NCBI GenBank assembly: GCA_964618975.1 | Contig: CAZUDI010000003.1 | Location: forward strand, 61,962 to 125,961 | Source of the DNA: an uncultured Bacteriovoracaceae bacterium | Lineage (GTDB): Bacteria; Desulfobacterota; Desulfomonilia; UBA1062 | Direction of reading: 5' to 3' | Length of the DNA: 64,000 bases | Shown here: positions 55,968 through 64,000 of the stretch, piece after piece | Layout: each line of letters opens with the position of its first letter | How positions within the stretch are numbered: position 1 is the stretch's first letter | Notes under the pieces: model-generated | Told to the model about the DNA's origin: nothing | The model's input: only the letters and a program-made list of their open reading frames with translations | The model's database searches: none | Program-made: the position numbers and the translations under genes

Positions 55968-57317
55968 ATGTCGCAGGCCAAGAGACTCGCCAACCGCAAT
56001 ATCGGTCGTGCCCGGCACTCCCTGCCCTATCTCCCCGTTGAGGCGCAGGAACTGATCGCTATCATCCCCTGCCTGCTTGCGCTCGGAGATGCGCCCTGCG
56101 GGGTGTACGGCCACCCCGTGTGCACCCCCTCCCAGTTCGATCTGCTCATGCGGCACCTGGGATGCAAGCCCGACCTTCCCGTCGGACGCCTGCCGGACAG
56201 AATCTGTCTTGAGAGCCTCATGGCCATTCCGCGCCCCTCTCTTACGGGCCCCTTCTCCCTCGGTCTGACGCTCATTGCCATTCCGCGTCCGGATATCCAT
56301 CTTGCGGAGGTCCACCGCCAGATGGAGCAGGTCGGATCGTTTTTACGCCACAGGGGAATCACAACCACCACCCTGGTCCAGACGCAGTTTCCGGAGTTCC
56401 TGATCAACGAGATCATGCGCTTAGGTATCGTGTTGGGCGGCAAACACCCGGTCACCAGCAGAGAGGAACTCACCGCGGAGGCGATCCATATCGGCGAGCT
56501 GCCCTCCGCGCTTAACGACCCCACCCTCGTCCTTCACGCGGACAGGAACCCCTTCCAGGACTATCTGAACCGGGAGCTCGCCGCCCGCGTGAGCCGCTCT
56601 GCCTATCCCTGTCCCCTGAGCATCCCCGGGGCCAATCCCTTCATCCTGCCCTACCTGAACATGCTCACCGAATCCGAGGAACGTGCCGACCACGACCGCC
56701 TGACCAAGATGCGCACGAGCCTGTTCCACCTCTTCGGGGGCTTCGGACCCACACGCGGGGTGGAGACCGTCCGGGGGACCTCCGTGCCGGACAGAACCAG
56801 CCTGGCCCATCTCAGTGCCGGGGAACGCCTGCGACTGAGAAAATGGCTCGTGCCCCTCGAGGATGACGAGCTGCCGCTCTTCTCCTGGCCGCCCCTCTCG
56901 TCCGGGGCCCTGGACGAGGTATCCCTCACCTGCCGCAGTGGCCTGTGGTCCCTCCAGGAGGCGGGAGATTTCGCCCACCGCTACTCCTGGATGGTGCTCG
57001 CCTGGGGGGCCCTGGCCGGGCTGATCGGCATAGAGACCCGCATCCGACACGCCGCCTCCCACAATCTGAAGCCGCAGGCCACGCAATACCTCATGGACAT
57101 GCTCGCGGCCTTGGAGGATGGAGCCACGCTCATCGTCACCCCCGATCCGCTCCAGGGTTCTATCCGTGTGAGCTCCGGACGCTTCTTCACCTCGAACAAA
57201 CCCTTTGCCCTGCTGGAGAACGGCATCAAATTCAGTCTCGAGTTGCACGAACCGGTCAAGAAGAAGGCCCTGATTGACGATAGGGATCTGGAGATCACAG
57301 CCAGGACAAAAATATGA
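55968..57317 (+). CDS. hypothetical protein (449 aa), no confidently recognised domain
   Basis: Continuous ORF with even codon usage, translationally coupled (ATGA) to the downstream pseudo-receiver gene. There is a weak, unverified resemblance of the first ~200 aa to the N-terminal region of class I adenylate cyclases. Confidence 0.5.
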   Translation: MSQAKRLANRNIGRARHSLPYLPVEAQELIAIIPCLLALGDAPCGVYGHPVCTPSQFDLLMRHLGCKPDLPVGRLPDRICLESLMAIPRPSLTGPFSLGLTLIAIPRPDIHLAEVHRQMEQVGSFLRHRGITTTTLVQTQFPEFLINEIMRLGIVLGGKHPVTSREELTAEAIHIGELPSALNDPTLVLHADRNPFQDYLNRELAARVSRSAYPCPLSIPGANPFILPYLNMLTESEERADHDRLTKMRTSLFHLFGGFGPTRGVETVRGTSVPDRTSLAHLSAGERLRLRKWLVPLEDDELPLFSWPPLSSGALDEVSLTCRSGLWSLQEAGDFAHRYSWMVLAWGALAGLIGIETRIRHAASHNLKPQATQYLMDMLAALEDGATLIVTPDPLQGSIRVSSGRFFTSNKPFALLENGIKFSLELHEPVKKKALIDDRDLEITARTKI

Positions 57318-58339
57318 CCATCGTTACGGACATCACCATTCTCATCGTCGGCCCGGACAATATCTTCCGGCGATCGATGGCCAACATGCTCACGACGATC
57401 GGATTCAGCAACATCCACGAGGTGCATGACGGAACCACGGCCTGGGAGGTGTTGCGCCGGATTCAGCCCCGCATCGTCATCACCCAGTGGGACATGCCGG
57501 AGATGAACGGTATGGCCCTCCTGAAGCTGATCCGCAGGGACAACGAATACGGTGACACCCCGCTCATTCTGTGGACCAAAGAGATCGACAAAACCGATGT
57601 CGTTAAGGCCGGCGAAACGGGGGTGAACTCCATCATCGTGGATCCGGTCGGCCTCGAGAGCCTCGAGTCCAAGATGCATGCGATCCTCGATTTTGAGATG
57701 AGTCCTCAGACCAAGCAGGCCAAAAACATCATGGCCAGGGGCGATTTCTATCTCAAAGAAAACCGCCTGGAGGAGGCGCTTAGAGAATACGAGCACGTGC
57801 TGGACATCCTCGAATCGGCCGAGGTGTACTACAATATCGGCTACATCAAGACGGCCAAGGGTGAGTACGACGAGGCCCTGGCCGCCTTCCGCAAGGCCAC
57901 CCAGCTGAATCAGATGTTCGCCAAGGCCTACAAGGCCATGGCGGATGTCTACCTCAGAATGGACAACAAGCAAATGGCCGAACAATACCTGCAGATGGCC
58001 GGCGAGATCTTCCTGGAACGCGAGATGCATGAGAGCGCCGAGAGCATCTTCAACGAGATCCTGGCAATCAATCCGGACACCATCAACGTCTACAACAGCC
58101 TGGGCATCATCTACCGCCGTCAGCACCGCTTCCAGGATGCCCTCATCCAGTACCAGAAGGCCGTCAAGATCAGCCCCACGGACGAGAACATCTACTTCAA
58201 CATGGGACGCGTCTACCTCGAGCTGAACAATCCGGACATGGCCAAGAAATGCTTCATCAAGGCCGTCAAGATCAATCCCAATTTCGATATCGCCCAGGGA
58301 ATGCTCACCGCCATCCAGACTTCGGAAAAGGTGGACTGA
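57314..58339 (+). CDS. CheY-homologous pseudo-receiver domain fused to TPR repeats
   Basis: The receiver aligns residue-by-residue with CheY ('GFSNIHEVHDGTTAWEVL', 'IVITQWDMPEMNGMALLKLIRRD', 'TPLILWTKE...SIIVDPV'), but the phospho-acceptor Asp is Gln (ITQW vs ISDW), the DD pair is PD, and the conserved Lys is Asp (VDPV vs VKPF). The C-terminal ~200 aa are TPR repeats ('AEVYYNIGYIKTAKGEYDEALAAFRKA', 'NIYFNMGRVYLELNNPDMAKKCFIKAVKINP'). Confidence 0.7.
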   Translation: MTIVTDITILIVGPDNIFRRSMANMLTTIGFSNIHEVHDGTTAWEVLRRIQPRIVITQWDMPEMNGMALLKLIRRDNEYGDTPLILWTKEIDKTDVVKAGETGVNSIIVDPVGLESLESKMHAILDFEMSPQTKQAKNIMARGDFYLKENRLEEALREYEHVLDILESAEVYYNIGYIKTAKGEYDEALAAFRKATQLNQMFAKAYKAMADVYLRMDNKQMAEQYLQMAGEIFLEREMHESAESIFNEILAINPDTINVYNSLGIIYRRQHRFQDALIQYQKAVKISPTDENIYFNMGRVYLELNNPDMAKKCFIKAVKINPNFDIAQGMLTAIQTSEKVD

Positions 58340-58535: not shown

Positions 58536-58781
58536 ATGGGTAACAACGATTCCTTCCTCAGCATCCTTATCCTGTTGGTTCTCTTCTTCGTGCTGCCACC
58601 GGTGCTGAAGCTCCTGGGCAGGTATACACTGAACAGCAAGGAGCAGGCCGAAAGGCCGGAACCTCTGGCCTCCGCACCCGCCGATCCTGCGGACTACAGC
58701 GGGCATTTCACGTCCGAGAGCGGCCTCCACGCGGGTGAGGCCGGGCATTCCTACAAACCGATCAACCCCAAATGGTTCTAG
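58536..58781 (+). CDS. small hypothetical membrane protein (~82 aa)
   Basis: Start at MGNNDSFLSILILLVLFFVLPPVLKLL (TM helix), followed by a Pro/Ala-rich tail. No family recognised. Confidence 0.35.
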   Translation: MGNNDSFLSILILLVLFFVLPPVLKLLGRYTLNSKEQAERPEPLASAPADPADYSGHFTSESGLHAGEAGHSYKPINPKWF

Positions 58782-59413
58782 GTCCCGCAAAAGGCAATCC
58801 CGGGCTCAGGTTCCTCCTCGGCATCGTCGTCATCTCCCTTTCTATCTACCTCTTCTACATCGGTCTTGCCCGCAAAAACTCGCCCCAGCTCTTCATCGTG
58901 CCCGCCCCGGTCAAGACCGTGGACTATCCCTGCAAGGTGGAACGCAGCGACACCTTGTCCGCATGCATCCCCAGCACCATGCGCGCCGCCCCCACACAGA
59001 AGGGGCTCGTCTTTCACTCGCTTGAGCTACGAACCCGCGGGGAGATCTTCATCCTGGAGGGGGGGCTGCCCGAGGAGAAGGCCTGGAGGGACTCGCTAAA
59101 GACCCCCATCGTACGGGTCTTTCTTGGTGACACGGAGGACTCCGGGACCTTCCACCTCATGAAGGACCTCCTGAGGCACCGCTGGAACCCTTCCCTCATG
59201 GGGATCAAGGCCCGGCTGATGCCTTCATGGACCAAGGGTCGCAGCGACGTGGAAATCCTCATACCCGAGGCGCTCCCGGCCCTGATCTTCTATACACCGG
59301 AACGCGCCCTCGGCCTGGCCTTCGGTACGGACCACGTGGCGGTGCTAACGGTGAGCGGTCACTTTGACAAGACGCTCCTCGCCGGCATGCTGCGTTCGAT
59401 CAGCCCTCAGTGA
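58772..59413 (+). CDS. hypothetical membrane-anchored protein (213 aa)
   Basis: N-terminal TM helix (FLLGIVVISLSIYLFYIGLA) then a soluble domain. Overlaps the preceding ORF by 10 nt. Confidence 0.45.
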   Translation: MVLGPAKGNPGLRFLLGIVVISLSIYLFYIGLARKNSPQLFIVPAPVKTVDYPCKVERSDTLSACIPSTMRAAPTQKGLVFHSLELRTRGEIFILEGGLPEEKAWRDSLKTPIVRVFLGDTEDSGTFHLMKDLLRHRWNPSLMGIKARLMPSWTKGRSDVEILIPEALPALIFYTPERALGLAFGTDHVAVLTVSGHFDKTLLAGMLRSISPQ

Positions 59414-59864
59414 CGGGGACGACCAGCAGGGGGCACGGCGGCTGTTTGAGGAGCTTCTCGGCCAGGTCGACCTTGAAGGACGAAAGCGTCCCCTTGGAGA
59501 CATCGTGCCCGAGGACCAGCAGGTCGATGCCCTGGTCCTGGATGACCTCATTGATCACGAGGAGGGGATTGCCCCGCATCACCAGCCGGTTGGCCGGGTC
59601 CACATCCCCAATGACCTCATGGCAGATGCTGTACATCTTGTCGCTGGCGGCCTTGATCACCTCCTCCTCGAGCTTGTCGGTGTTGATATGAGGCACATAG
59701 AAGCCGGCCGCGCCCTTGATATCGGTCACCGTGTGGAGCATGAAGAGTCTGGCATCGAAAATCCGTGCGACGCGGTAGGCGTAGCTGACCACCTGGATAC
59801 TGTGCCGACCGAGATCGAGATAGCAGAGCACCCTGGTGGGGTCCTGCGAAAACACCTTCTTCAT
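59400..59864 (-). CDS. universal stress protein (UspA family)
   Basis: Start at MKKVFSQ (ATG 59864; GAGGAGGG RBS). 'LLVLGHDVSKGTLSSF...CPLLVVP' is the USP C-terminal ATP-binding motif region (G-x2-G-x9-G(S/T)). Confidence 0.75.
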   Translation of the reverse strand: MKKVFSQDPTRVLCYLDLGRHSIQVVSYAYRVARIFDARLFMLHTVTDIKGAAGFYVPHINTDKLEEEVIKAASDKMYSICHEVIGDVDPANRLVMRGNPLLVINEVIQDQGIDLLVLGHDVSKGTLSSFKVDLAEKLLKQPPCPLLVVPVTEG

Positions 59865-59908
59865 TTCATCCCTCCTCATCATCGTTGAATGGTTACTTCA
59901 CGCTAGCC

Positions 59909-60289
59909 TTAGCGATTGCATACCGAATCGATCACATCCTTGAGGTCCTTAAGGTGGAAAGGCTTGGCCATAAAGGCATCCGCCCCCCGCTCGAAGGCCA
60001 CCTTGCGGGCGTCCTCCACGCTGAATCCCGTGATGAGGACCACCGGCATCCCGGGATACTGTTGCTTGACCTCGGTCATGAGCTTGAGCCCGTCCATCCG
60101 CGGCATGTGGATGTCCGTCACCACGATATCCAGGCGCCTCTCCTTCATGAGGTCCAGAGCGGCATAACCGTCCTTGGCGGTGGTGACATCGTACCCGAAC
60201 ATTCCCAGGAAGTCGGCGATGACCTGGGACAATTCATTGGAATCATCCACCACAAGCACTTGTTTTCTCTTATTCATTGCTCGGTTCAC
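59909..60289 (-). CDS. single-domain response regulator (CheY-like receiver)
   Basis: 'VLVVDDS', 'DIVVTDIHMPRMDG', 'VVLITGF', 'FMAKPF': all five canonical receiver residues are present. Confidence 0.85.
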   Translation of the reverse strand: MNRAMNKRKQVLVVDDSNELSQVIADFLGMFGYDVTTAKDGYAALDLMKERRLDIVVTDIHMPRMDGLKLMTEVKQQYPGMPVVLITGFSVEDARKVAFERGADAFMAKPFHLKDLKDVIDSVCNR

Positions 60290-60944
60290 TTGTCAAATCA
60301 ATAATCTCGTAGTCACGTAGCGAGGTATACTTCTTCGTATCGGCCTTGCTGAGCCTGGCCAGCTTGTCCATAACCTCCTTGACCTTGAAGATCTGGTCCT
60401 CCATGGTTTTCAGTATCTTCTGAACGCCACTGACCCGCTCCAGTTCCTCGCTCAGCTGCAGCATCTCGATATTTCCGAGGATGATGGTCAAGGGCGTGTT
60501 TATCTGATCCGAGAGGGTCACCGCGGTCTTGGCGATGGCATTGACCTCCTGTAAACGCCGCTGCTCGGCCCCGAACTTCTGCATGTCAAGTGCCCGGTGT
60601 ACCCGCATGAGAAGCTCCTCCTCGTCACAGGGCTTCAGCAGGTAATCGTAAACCCCGAGCCTAAGGGCCGAGACCGCCGTCTTGATGGAGCCGTAACCCG
60701 TGATCACAATCACCATGGTCCGCGGTGAGAGCACCTTGACATTCTCGAGCAGTTCCAGCCCGTCCATGCCCTCCATGACGAGGTCCGTCAGCACGAGATG
60801 GTAGTTCTTCTCATAAAGTAGCTTGAGGGCATCCTCGGCCGAGGCAACCCCATCCACCTCATACCCGTGAGATGTCAGGATATTCACCAGCGAATACCTG
60901 ACGATCTCTTCATCATCAACTATGAGTATTCTCTGTGTGCTCAC
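60270..60944 (-). CDS. response regulator: canonical receiver plus a C-terminal DHp (HisKA)-like helical domain lacking the phospho-accepting His
   Basis: Receiver 'ILIVDDEE', 'LVLTDLVMEGMDG', 'VIVITGY', 'LLKPC'. C-terminus 'AIAKTAVTLSDQINTPLTIILGNIEMLQ' resembles the HisKA H-box (hsHELRTPL..I.G..ELL), with Asp/Gln where the His would be. Confidence 0.65.
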   Translation of the reverse strand: MSTQRILIVDDEEIVRYSLVNILTSHGYEVDGVASAEDALKLLYEKNYHLVLTDLVMEGMDGLELLENVKVLSPRTMVIVITGYGSIKTAVSALRLGVYDYLLKPCDEEELLMRVHRALDMQKFGAEQRRLQEVNAIAKTAVTLSDQINTPLTIILGNIEMLQLSEELERVSGVQKILKTMEDQIFKVKEVMDKLARLSKADTKKYTSLRDYEIIDLTSEPSNE

Positions 60945-63085
60945 TGCCTGATCATCCTGTACTTGAGCCTGCTGATCTCCTCGTGCACGATGCCCTGGAG
61001 CTCCTTGACACGGAAGGGCTTGCGGATGAAGGTCGCGCCGGTGCGGTCGAAGAACTCCTTGACCTGCAAATCATAGGTATCTCCAGTAATGAAAAGAAAT
61101 CTCTGCTGCAGGCAGGGTTTCTTGCTGACGACCTCCCGGTACAGTTCCATGCCGTCCATGACCGGCATCCTCAAGTCCGAGATGATGAGCTCCCACTCAT
61201 GCTCATCCAGGTGCTCGTAAGCCTCGCGCCCGTTCCTGAAACTGCGGATGGAATAGTACGGTCCCAGGGCGTCGGCCATGAGATCAAGGAGATCCTCCTC
61301 ATCCTCCACTACCATGATCGTGCCCGGATCATCCCCCCCCTGCATCTCCTCCAAACAGCACTCGGCCATCTCATGACCCTGGGGGGTCCGAACCCTGTCT
61401 TCCCCTTTCTCGACCGCCGGGATCTTCACGATCGCCAGCGTCCCGTGATCGGTGTTCTCCAGGCTGATCTCGCCCCGGTGATCCGTGATGATCCCGTAAC
61501 AGATCGACAGCCCCAGACCGGTGCCCTTATCCACGGACTTGGTGGTGAAAAAGGGGTCGAAGACCTTGGGCATGACCTCGTCCAGGATCCCGGGGCCGGT
61601 GTCTTCGATCTGGATATGGACAGAGCCACCCTTGATAAAGGACCGGATGATGATATTGCCGCTCTCGTTGCCGATGGCATCGATGGAATTGTTGATGAGG
61701 TTGACCATGACCTGCTCCATGCAGTTCATGTCGGCCCGCACCACCAGGGGCGCCTGGGAGATCTCGTGCATGATCTTGATCCCCCGTTTCTTGATGGTGG
61801 GCTTGTAGAGATTCATGGTACGATCGATGATCTCGCGGATATCGAAGACCGTCTTGGCCGGCGGGAGGTTGCGCGAGAAGGTCAGCAGCGACCCTACTAT
61901 GTTGCGGGCCGAGTCGGCCGATTCCATCAGGGTGGTGAACCGCTCGCGATCGCGGGGGGTGAGATACGAGGTGTCGATCAGATCGGCGAACCCGAGGATG
62001 GGGGTGAGCTTGTTGTTGAGCTCATGGGCAATGCCCGAGGTGAGCAGCCCCAGCGAGGTGAGCTTCTCGGTCTGCATGCTGCGCTGCTCGATACGTTTCT
62101 TGAGCGTAACATCTTTGAGGATGAGCAGTATCTGGTCCGGCATGATGCGCTTGACGGAACACTGGCAGATGAAACTCGAGGCGTTGACCAGTACCAGGCC
62201 CACATCGAAGTCCCGGGCTTCACCCTCGGCCAGATCGTCCATCTGGGTCTTAAGGATCTGCAGGGATTCGGCGTCAAAGATATCTTCCAGGGTGAAGGGC
62301 TGACGCTGCAGGCGGGCAGACAGGGCCTGGTTGCTGAAAATCACCGTATCCTGCTCGATGAGGAGGATCATCTCCTCAGTGGAATCGACCACCGCCTTAT
62401 AGCGGGTGGAAATCTCCCGCAGCGTGGTCTCCTTCGTATGCACTTGCTGTTGCAGCTCGTTGTATTCCCTGCTGAATATGCCATAAAGGCTCAGGAGTGT
62501 CAGCATCTGGCCCACGAGCAGCCCCAGGAGCTCGAACATCCGCACGTCATGGACATGGAAAAAATTCTTCTCCGCATGTGAGAGGTTCAGGACGCCGACG
62601 ACCCTGTCACCCTCCTTGATGGGCACGCACAGCATCGAGCCGATCGGCACACGAGTATCGGGTCGCCGTTCGAAAAAGGCACAGCGCTCGGTATCCGAGA
62701 CCAGCACATGGCGCCCCTCCTGAGCACACTTCCCCGCCACCCCTTGGCCGAGGGCGATGCGGACATGTTTGTTGGTATTCTCGTTGTGGGAACCCGAGGC
62801 CGCCTTCAGGACCAGCTGATCTCCCGACACCATGAAGAGGGAGGCGTTCTTGCACTTGGATTCTTCGATGAGCACATTGACCACATAGGCATAGAAATCC
62901 TCCTCGGGTGAACCCTTGCGCACGAATTCCTGCAGCCGGAAGATGCCCGAGAAGATACCGATGGTGTCCTCGTAGAAGGTGGTCGTCTGACGGAGAAGGT
63001 CGAACAGTACCTCTTCCCGCCTGCCCCCCGAGGATGCCTCGAACTCGGTAATCTGATCCATCAACGTGCCCTCGATGCCCATCAC
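60941..63085 (-). CDS. hybrid sensor histidine kinase (GAF - PAS-like - HisKA - HATPase_c - receiver)
   Basis: GAF-like region ('VLNLSHAEKNFFHVHDVRMFELLG'); H-box 'LGLLTSGIAHELNNKLTPILGFADLI'; N/G boxes 'VMVNLINNSIDAI', 'IEDTGPGI', 'GTGLGLSICYGI'; C-terminal receiver 'IMVVEDEEDLL...LIISDLRMPVMDG...FIRKPF'. Confidence 0.85.
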   Translation of the reverse strand: MMGIEGTLMDQITEFEASSGGRREEVLFDLLRQTTTFYEDTIGIFSGIFRLQEFVRKGSPEEDFYAYVVNVLIEESKCKNASLFMVSGDQLVLKAASGSHNENTNKHVRIALGQGVAGKCAQEGRHVLVSDTERCAFFERRPDTRVPIGSMLCVPIKEGDRVVGVLNLSHAEKNFFHVHDVRMFELLGLLVGQMLTLLSLYGIFSREYNELQQQVHTKETTLREISTRYKAVVDSTEEMILLIEQDTVIFSNQALSARLQRQPFTLEDIFDAESLQILKTQMDDLAEGEARDFDVGLVLVNASSFICQCSVKRIMPDQILLILKDVTLKKRIEQRSMQTEKLTSLGLLTSGIAHELNNKLTPILGFADLIDTSYLTPRDRERFTTLMESADSARNIVGSLLTFSRNLPPAKTVFDIREIIDRTMNLYKPTIKKRGIKIMHEISQAPLVVRADMNCMEQVMVNLINNSIDAIGNESGNIIIRSFIKGGSVHIQIEDTGPGILDEVMPKVFDPFFTTKSVDKGTGLGLSICYGIITDHRGEISLENTDHGTLAIVKIPAVEKGEDRVRTPQGHEMAECCLEEMQGGDDPGTIMVVEDEEDLLDLMADALGPYYSIRSFRNGREAYEHLDEHEWELIISDLRMPVMDGMELYREVVSKKPCLQQRFLFITGDTYDLQVKEFFDRTGATFIRKPFRVKELQGIVHEEISRLKYRMIRQ

Positions 63086-63888
63086 ATGAGACTCTTGATA
63101 ATGGTGGCCTGTTTTTTATACCTGTGTATCATATCATTGACAAGGTCTTTGTAATTACCCCCCAGAAACACCCTCAGCCATCCCACATACTTGGCTATGT
63201 CGAAAGGAATTCCACTCTGTTGCTGGTGCACCACCAGATTGGCGACGTGAATCAGGGCCGAAGGTCGGTTGATGGGTGTGTGGTGGTTCCGGATCATGCC
63301 CGCGACCTCGGGGGGGAAATGCCACTTTTTGGCCACGATCTCCCCGATGAACGTGTGGTCCATCGCGAAAAGTTCGCGCTCCTTCTCCGTATCCGGCCAG
63401 GACCCGTCCTTTTCGTACAGGGCCGAATAGCGCGGCTGGCCCTGACTGAGGAGCACCATGCGTCCCAGATCGTGCAGCAGACCGCCCGTGAACAGCCATT
63501 GGCGCTCGTTCCTGGTGGAGCCCAGCTCATAGGCGACCAGGGCGACCCCGTATGAATGCCGCCAGAGGTCGTTGGCTGCCTGCGAGAAATCGCTAAGCCT
63601 CTCCATCACCGCCATGGAGAGGGTGATACACTTGACCATATTGAATCCGACCGTCCTGAGGGCATCCTGCAGGCATAGGCCCTGCTCGGTATGCCGGTAG
63701 AACGGTGAATTGGCGAGTTTCATGATCTTGGCCGCCATGGCCGGATCACTGGCAACCACCTGCTCGATATCCGAGACCTCGGTGTTCCCATCCTCCAGGA
63801 GATTCAGCAGCATCATCTTGCTCGCCTCCAGGGTGGGGACACTCTCCAGGTCCAGCTCGACACACATCACAGCATCTCCAGACTCCAT
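63082..63888 (-). CDS. HDOD domain protein (HD-related output domain)
   Basis: 'VASDPAMAAKIMKLANSPFYR', 'LWRHSYGVALVAYEL', and 'GGLLHDLGRMVL' carrying the degenerate HD motif, as in HDOD proteins. ATGA-coupled to the hybrid kinase gene. Confidence 0.75.
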   Translation of the reverse strand: MESGDAVMCVELDLESVPTLEASKMMLLNLLEDGNTEVSDIEQVVASDPAMAAKIMKLANSPFYRHTEQGLCLQDALRTVGFNMVKCITLSMAVMERLSDFSQAANDLWRHSYGVALVAYELGSTRNERQWLFTGGLLHDLGRMVLLSQGQPRYSALYEKDGSWPDTEKERELFAMDHTFIGEIVAKKWHFPPEVAGMIRNHHTPINRPSALIHVANLVVHQQQSGIPFDIAKYVGWLRVFLGGNYKDLVNDMIHRYKKQATIIKSLM

Positions 63889-64000
63889 AGTATTGTATAT
63901 ACGGAATATCCCTGAAGCAACTTTAAGGCTTTCTGCTCAGGGCCTCTGACCGCCCAGTCCCCCGCCCACGATCCCCTTGTAATTTTCCCCCCGGACCTTT

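Follow-up and report, generated by a model that had tools for sequence, protein, structure and literature searches.

A conserved Desulfomonilia response regulator with an aspartate-bearing, ATPase-less HisKA-like domain: a possible receiver-gated phosphatase

The response regulator described here is a 224-residue protein encoded on the minus strand (60270-60944) of a 64,000-nucleotide stretch of DNA, called the window throughout, from an uncultured Bacteriovoracaceae bacterium placed by GTDB in the Desulfomonilia (contig CAZUDI010000003.1, positions 61,962 to 125,961). It joins a receiver domain (REC1) to a C-terminus that, judged by its sequence, is a genuine homologue of the DHp (dimerization and histidine phosphotransfer)/HisKA domain of histidine kinases, with Asp at the acceptor site and no ATPase domain. 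In two-component theory, the DHp domain is a carrier of His-phosphate joined to an ATPase, and pseudo-kinases are viewed as rare one-offs. The regulator is read here, tentatively, as a possible receiver-controlled, dedicated phosphatase or docking module for an adjacent single-domain receiver (REC2).

The N-terminal part of the regulator is a receiver of the PF00072 family (REC1, residues 6-115, 60600..60929, minus strand; Pfam Response_reg, 106.1 bits), with an intact pocket comprising D10/D11, the acceptor D54 in the motif LVLTD54L, T82, and K104, all conserved among orthologues. The HisKA-like domain and its conserved tail follow at residues 131-218 (60291..60554, minus strand). Residues 143-203 match model positions 8-65 of Pfam HisKA (PF00512) with 29.9 bits against a gathering cutoff of 26.9 (E 5.9e-7), and Asp146 (GAT, 60507-60509), within the motif D-Q-I-N-T-P-L, is aligned to the phospho-His. 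The only His residues of the regulator are at 26, 49, and 116, and the absence of any beyond residue 116 rules out a His in an alternative register. Only 78 residues follow D146, and Pfam finds no HATPase_c match among them; the Hpt family (PF01627) likewise gave no match at E<=1 in any of the five cluster proteins. Since it has neither the His nor a catalytic ATPase (CA) domain, the regulator can act neither as a kinase nor as a His phosphotransferase.

A profile of the Asp-bearing (D-type) domains, built from 27 of them (A3), was searched against all sequences in the PDB and matched only histidine kinases: LvrB (8.8e-8), a variant of HK853 (9e-7), wild-type HK853 (2e-4), and then FixL chimeras and ThkA. 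Each of these alignments places the Asp on the phospho-His, and the conserved tail (K-x-Y...M-x-D-L) falls on the stretch of HK853 that runs from the DHp-CA linker into the first CA strand. The only other Pfam matches in the C-terminus, weighed for a coiled-coil alternative (Sipho_Gp157, Isd linker), fell far under their cutoffs. A first-pass annotation of the window had proposed, from a peptide that is indeed found in the regulator (SDQINTPLTIILGNIEML), that the domain resembles a DHp without His at the phospho-acceptor position. Both halves of that proposal are borne out: the domain is no unrelated coiled coil, and Asp occupies the site in 120/120 close orthologues.

An AlphaFold2 model of the full-length regulator (mean predicted local distance difference test score, pLDDT, 84.9) shows a canonical receiver whose helix 5 runs unbroken into DHp helix 1 (residues 108-164). 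After a turn comes helix 2 (172-196) and then two short, low-confidence strands within the only about 25 residues that remain; the hairpin itself has a pLDDT of about 85-90, and a model of the isolated domain agrees with the full-length one. Foldseek searches with the full-length model were dominated by receiver matches, the closest folds being of the NtrC1/NtrX type, and left the C-terminus uninformed. With the isolated domain, the best matches were the DHp domains of SB2F1/FixL, GacS, CpxA, and ERS1, all at E >=0.06. The GacS match had a template modelling (TM) score of 0.91 normalised by target length and a root-mean-square deviation of 1.1 A. Generic helical hairpins (WXG100, designed bundles) fit about equally well in the same E range, and the fold comparison is thus consistent with a DHp, yet not independently significant.

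That equal fit is one of two observations in favor of a purely structural role, in which a vestigial hairpin would serve as a phosphorylation-controlled dimerization or coiled-coil module and the H-box would have no catalytic or docking function; the other is that a 2025 survey finds no His in about 0.9% of HisKA domains (PMC12632262). A vestigial site would be expected to drift, whereas substitutions are almost absent at D, N(+3), T(+4), P, and L, and helix 1 is the most conserved segment, making this explanation improbable. The 120 closest database proteins, 70-80% identical and from metagenome-assembled genomes (MAGs) labelled Desulfomonilia, Syntrophaceae, or Deltaproteobacteria, all contain LSD[RQK]INTPL (120/120). 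Across 121 orthologues, mean majority-residue frequency is 0.94 in DHp helix 1, compared with 0.85 in the receiver and 0.74 in helix 2.

The same constraint extends well beyond close orthologues. In D-type and H-type (His-bearing) pools comprising all sequences fetched, and therefore redundant as samples, Asp is present in 243/243 D-type sequences within the motif D-[QRK]-I-N-T-P-L; the +1 residue is Q, R, K, or H, with no acidic residue in any sequence, all of them (100%) have Asn at +3, and 236/243 (97%) have Thr at +4. Of the 70 H-type relatives, 87% have Glu at +1 and 80% have Asn at +4. As the Asp, N(+3), T(+4), P, and L hold across phyla and architectures, the regulator does not appear to be decaying.

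An exhaustive HMMER search with the 107-residue C-terminus as query yielded 102 cluster representatives, in nearly all of which the domain is the extreme C-terminus, most proteins ending 69-97 residues past the His/Asp position. Pfam recognised HisKA in 72 of the 75 representatives scanned, and HATPase_c was not among the 25 commonest families in that set. The domains found N-terminal to it are diverse: REC (27), PAS (about 20), GAF (about 10), TPR, HAMP, or CBS. The acceptor position holds His (TAVTxNHEINNPL) in 70 representatives and Asp in 30. In a neighbor-joining tree, rough because it rests on about 100 residues only, the Asp forms fall into approximately one clade, with a small second Asp group elsewhere and two His revertants (P0154 and P0245) nested within the clade; parsimony on the tree gives three His/Asp changes. 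The Asp clade spans MAGs of Desulfomonilia-type Desulfobacterota, Calditrichota, KSB1, Zixibacteria, and Delongbacteria. Two further searches added few members: a scan of GTDB genomes returned two close orthologous loci and two distant relatives, the other 76 loci being generic receiver matches, and a word-indexed search with the D-clade profile returned 15 proteins, mostly fragments.

A possible step in the origin of these proteins is seen at L007:80-1150, which encodes a REC-DHp(D)-HATPase_c protein that shares 39% identity with the regulator of the window and has an Asp in alignment with D146 (LADTLNNRM). The ATPase domain of this protein is apparently intact, and it may be either an evolutionary intermediate or a pseudokinase. 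It suggests a path from an LvrB-like receiver-kinase through exchange of His for Asp to loss of the ATPase domain. On the His branch are REC-DHp(His)-REC proteins (L006:1896-2957, P0165), which look like an Asp-His-Asp relay lacking a kinase domain, and proteins of other input domains with DHp(His) followed by single-domain receivers, near flagellar and motor genes (see also L084:6001-6687, P0128). These ATPase-less His-branch proteins may be Spo0B-like phosphotransferases, apparently uncharacterised.

The likely partner of the Asp-DHp domain is indicated by gene fusion and by gene order. P0133, P0135, and roughly 90 more homologues, from MAGs labelled Calditrichota, KSB1, and related groups, have the layout REC-DHp(D)-linker-REC, and their C-terminal receiver is closely similar to the single-domain receiver of the window. 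About 95 homologues have a recognisable motif, 92 with Asp and 3 with His. The REC-DHp(D)-REC layout is therefore a Rosetta-stone fusion of two genes that are adjacent in the window, those for the regulator and the single REC. Separate genes show the same association: an overlapping single-REC gene directly follows the regulator gene in the window and at L001, L004, L005, and L088. In a Delongbacteria MAG (L092:5001-8619), a 947-residue GAF-PAS-GAF...DHp(Asp) protein is followed by two 4-nucleotide-overlapping single-REC genes, and no HisKA kinase is found within 5 kb of it; a LOG-family (lysine-decarboxylase-like) gene and genes for bacterial microcompartment (BMC) shell proteins lie further downstream. 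A chemosensory cluster (L090:4234-10672) encodes a GAF protein, a PAS-DHp(Asp) protein, CheW, HDOD, CheR, CheA, and CheB, with no CheZ/CheX-type phosphatase in the stretch read. It is the second place where HDOD accompanies a D-type DHp protein. Taken together, fusion and adjacency argue that the Asp-DHp domain is functionally linked to REC2. Because helix 108-164 is continuous in the model, REC1 could not fold back onto Asp146 and would more plausibly be the regulator of the bundle than its substrate, leaving the tethered or co-translated REC2 as a plausible substrate.

The mechanism that may follow from these features begins with a phosphorylatable REC1 whose last helix would run into a homodimeric DHp hairpin descended from HisKA kinases. 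The H-box of that hairpin appears re-tooled, reading Asp-Gln/Arg/Lys-Ile-Asn-Thr-Pro-Leu in place of His-Glu-Ile-Asn-Asn-Pro-Leu, and would support neither autophosphorylation nor relay of His-phosphate, while the receiver-docking helix 1 and the +4 Thr are retained. The hybrid kinase encoded next to the regulator would phosphorylate both REC1 and the downstream REC2, and the phosphorylation state of REC1 would travel along the continuous helix to the Asp-DHp bundle. The bundle, for which fusion and gene order suggest docking to REC2, would then hydrolyse REC2~P, with Asp146 replacing His as the general base and Thr150 positioning the water. The predicted outcome is a kinase-independent, receiver-gated "off" enzyme for a single-domain response regulator.

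Genetic and biochemical work on HisKA kinases offers several points of support for such an enzyme. In CrdS, HK853, and others, autokinase activity alone depends on the acid at H+1, and phosphatase activity alone on the Thr or Asn at H+4 (PMC3510030). Replacement of the His by Ala retains most phosphatase activity, giving CrdA~P a half-life of 2.6 min, compared with 0.7 min for the wild type and 53.5 min for CrdA~P alone (PMC3510030). In HK853 and EnvZ the catalytic water is activated by the His, acting as general base, and a form of HK853 from which the CA domain is missing is still active as a phosphatase (PMC7005713). Thr150 of the regulator sits at the +4 position where HisKA-type transmitter phosphatases require Thr or Asn, and phosphatase catalysis by the regulator is predicted. 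With the kinase-specific residue lost, the phosphatase-specific residue kept, and a carboxylate at the general-base site, a dedicated phosphatase is the most economical reading of the domain.

Several observations weigh against that reading. HisKA phosphatase activity is enhanced by the CA domain together with ADP (PMC7005713), so enzymatic activity of an ATPase-less Asp-DHp could be weak. Certain kinases, as PleC H610A illustrates (cited in PMC3510030), depend on the His to act as phosphatases. Two fusion orthologues, P0154 and P0245, have His at the site, from which the shared function may not depend on the residue found there. The D-clade sample is phylogenetically redundant. Finally, fusion and adjacency cannot separate catalysis from mere binding of REC2.

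The last point applies directly to a non-catalytic sensor or adaptor resembling DivL, in which the Asp-DHp domain would bind REC2, or the receiver of the kinase, according to phosphorylation state without hydrolysis. The receiver would thereby be sequestered, or its state passed back to the hybrid kinase, and Asp146 could mimic the charge of phospho-His. The fusion and gene-order evidence is the same for this alternative as for the phosphatase, the nearest models of the neighboring kinase include CckA and EspC, and the trio of proteins resembles CckA-DivL-DivK. DivL, however, retains its CA domain and has Tyr rather than Asp, and a site at which Asp, Asn at +3, and Thr at +4 are conserved together is more suggestive of catalysis than of a surface for binding. 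A sensor or adaptor is accordingly considered rather unlikely, though a serious contender.

A third role would make Asp146 itself a phospho-carrier in an Asp-Asp-Asp relay, with phosphate passing from REC1~P or the kinase REC~P to Asp146 and on to REC2, bypassing histidine. The strict conservation of Asp, as opposed to other small or polar residues, would suit this role, and the REC-DHp(D)-REC layout matches that of the REC-DHp(H)-REC relatives (L006, P0165, P0154), giving it a relay-like look. Loss of the +1 acid and the change of Asn to Thr at +4 fit the genetics of phosphatase activity and not of transfer. To our knowledge, no acyl-phosphate on a DHp helix and no Asp-to-Asp-to-Asp phosphorelay chemistry has been described in two-component signalling, and a relay of this kind appears highly improbable.

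The hybrid kinase is a 714-residue protein (60941..63085, minus strand) with Pfam matches to GAF_2 (68.3 bits; GAF at residues 61-195), HisKA (38.0 bits), HATPase_c (71.2 bits; residues 456-557), and Response_reg (60.6 bits; REC at residues 590-699). Direct reading identifies its phospho-His as His354 (CAT, 62024-62026) in the H-box AHELNNKLTPILG, together with N, G1, F, and G2 boxes and the receiver acceptor Asp637; the kinase is intact and is a hybrid histidine kinase. The NCBIfam models that come nearest to it, EspC, AtoS, and CckA, all score far under their cutoffs, and its H-box is of the CckA/EspC-like type, lacking Pro at +5. Between GAF and HisKA lies a PAS-sized stretch of ~135 residues (residues ~196-330, window 62096-62500), for which neither Pfam nor the PDB sequences gave a match. 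The first-pass annotation had assigned a PAS domain to this kinase, which found no backing: no Pfam PAS family matches it at E<=1, and phmmer searches of residues 196-345 against the PDB returned nothing relevant. Residues ~196-330 may nonetheless adopt a divergent PAS fold.

The same annotation had suggested that the His-less DHp domain might pair with or titrate the DHp domain of this kinase. On such a model, autophosphorylation would be poisoned much as RetS acts on GacS. The two genes are co-conserved and share a 4-nucleotide overlap (GTGA), fusion-type homologues often adjoin PAS kinases, and the RetS-GacS co-complex 7n0e, a structural precedent for DHp-DHp heteromerization, is among the fold matches of the isolated domain. 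BLASTP of the regulator's C-terminal 107 residues against the kinase, however, finds no significant similarity to its DHp, which also led to rejection of a recent duplication of the kinase DHp as the source of the domain. The two H-boxes belong to different subgroups and place the helix-kinking Pro differently (AHELNNKLTP versus DQINTPL), and D-type proteins are also found at a locus without a HisKA kinase in the surrounding 5 kb (L092) or in a CheA cluster (L090). Pure dimerization would leave the invariant Asp and the Thr at +4 unexplained, and the strong constraint on Asp, Thr +4, and helix 1 is typical of a receiver-facing active surface. Heterodimerization or titration is therefore given little chance, and it is not retained as the leading mechanism, given the different HisKA subgroups and the lack of BLASTP similarity.

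The regulator and kinase belong to a cluster of five minus-strand genes whose order, HDOD protein, hybrid kinase, REC+HisKA regulator, REC, and universal stress protein (USP), had been proposed from the open reading frames (ORFs) and agrees with the Pfam assignments; the co-directional genes are coupled as had been suggested, mostly by overlaps. The first gene encodes a 268-residue HDOD-domain protein (63082..63888; Pfam HDOD, 144.9 bits; HD, 40.3 bits), and its junction with the kinase gene is ATGTGATG, an overlap of 1 or 4 nucleotides. The junction of kinase and regulator is the GTGA overlap, and that of regulator and REC2 is ATGAATAA, an overlap of 8 nucleotides. REC2 most likely starts at the ATG at 60277, yielding a receiver of 122 residues (59909..60277, minus strand, the longest ORF extending to 60289; Response_reg, 101.3 bits) with the acceptor motif IVVTD55I. 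A short gap separates REC2 from the last gene, which encodes a 154-residue USP (59400..59864, minus strand; longest ORF from 59882; Pfam Usp, 41.1 bits). Its start is most likely the third ATG, at 59864, which is preceded by an AGGAGG Shine-Dalgarno sequence. The HDOD (PF08668) and Usp (PF00582) matches are both above their gathering cutoffs. A consensus scan for promoters and terminators in 59000-64000 found matches no commoner than in shuffled sequence.

Convergent with the cluster is a 213-residue ORF (58772..59413, plus strand) with an N-terminal hydrophobic segment, for which the Pfam scan gave no match; it overlaps the 3' end of the USP gene by 14 nucleotides. Just beyond it lies a further receiver, in a REC-TPR protein of 341 residues (57314-58339, plus strand), and upstream of that gene and overlapping it by 4 nucleotides is a 449-residue ORF assigned to no Pfam family (55968-57317, plus strand).

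The full cluster, HDOD-kinase-REC-DHp(D)-REC-USP with the convergent ORF, recurs at L001 (a 1.4-Mb contig), L004, and L005, and the order REC-DHp(D), REC, USP is kept at L088, where the regulator is 52% identical. Across orthologous loci the regulator is the best conserved protein (71-79% identity), compared with 55-59% for the kinase, 45-51% for HDOD, 54-63% for REC, and 55-60% for USP. HDOD orthologues of 45-51% identity occupy the same position in L001 and L005, and a homologue of the convergent ORF, 41-47% identical, is likewise convergent in L001, L004, and L005. At protein identities of 45-79%, the preservation of gene order in independent contigs points to more than chance expectation. 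The first-pass annotation took the HDOD protein and the USP to suggest stress or second-messenger integration, a putative role; both genes are among those conserved in the cluster. The 213-residue ORF can be regarded as a conserved neighbor whose membership in the system is uncertain. At the 71%-identical locus, a divergent REC-GGDEF gene (L001:3899-4861) lies just upstream of HDOD; the window ends 112 nucleotides beyond HDOD.

The D-type family is widespread and apparently unstudied. In the open-access literature, searched for REC-HisKA and CA-less DHp proteins, His-to-Asp HisKA domains, and HDOD/USP operons, no account of a REC protein with an ATPase-less Asp-DHp was found, and the 2025 survey that counted His-less HisKA domains does not describe an ATPase-less Asp class (PMC12632262). 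Current database labels for D-type proteins are "response regulator," "NtrC family," and "YesN/AraC family," and recognition of the Asp-DHp domain would improve their annotation. The proteins make up a large multi-phylum clade in which the ATPase is gone, His is systematically Asp, the kinase-specific neighbor is lost, and the phosphatase-specific residue is kept. If the domain is indeed a sensor-gated phosphatase or dock, it would represent a new, kinase-derived class of auxiliary response-regulator phosphatase, could explain how certain hybrid-kinase or CheY-like circuits without CheZ/CheX-type enzymes are reset, and would give studies of the HisKA phosphatase mechanism a naturally occurring separation-of-function variant.

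Several known systems share individual features with the regulator. RetS and GacS provide a precedent for one DHp domain inactivating another kinase; RetS, however, has the complete hybrid-kinase architecture, and the DHp pair of the window comes from different subgroups. Spo0B, ChpT, and PhyT are kinase-derived four-helix bundles that have no kinase activity and dock receivers, but they depend on the His and retain an alpha/beta domain resembling CA, neither of which the regulator has. CheZ (DxxxQ), CheX/CheC (ExxN), and Spo0E have no homology to the domain and resemble it by motif inspection only, in what we take to be a possible analogy: D146-x-x-N149-T150 would place an acid and an amide or hydroxyl on one helix face that enters the active site of the receiver.

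The HisKA DHp domains of bifunctional kinases such as HK853, EnvZ, CrdS, and LvrB share the homologous hairpin, the x-I-N-T/N-P-L motif, the +4 Thr, and the docking helix 1, and LvrB also carries a receiver N-terminal to its DHp, as the regulator does. The regulator differs from these kinases in having Asp for phospho-His and no +1 acid, and it ends at a remnant of the first CA strand. DivL of Caulobacter likewise has a His-less DHp and acts in a network alongside a single-domain receiver and a CckA-like hybrid kinase; it is reported as an established pseudokinase, with a DHp that senses DivK~P (PMC4211667). Among the features of a DivL-like pseudokinase, the regulator has only the His-less DHp, its CA domain being absent: DivL has Tyr, a retained CA domain, and PAS inputs in an alphaproteobacterial setting, whereas the regulator has Asp, no CA domain, and a receiver input, and the sequence kinship seen between the two is at the level of the HisKA superfamily. 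RedE, from the RedCDEF "four-component" system of Myxococcus, is also a non-autophosphorylating, kinase-like protein under receiver control, and it serves as a receiver-protein-controlled phosphatase for a single-domain response regulator (PMC2755868). In RedE the His is still present and control operates through phosphotransfer from RedD onto it, whereas in the regulator of the window the controlling receiver is fused to the DHp domain and the His has become Asp.

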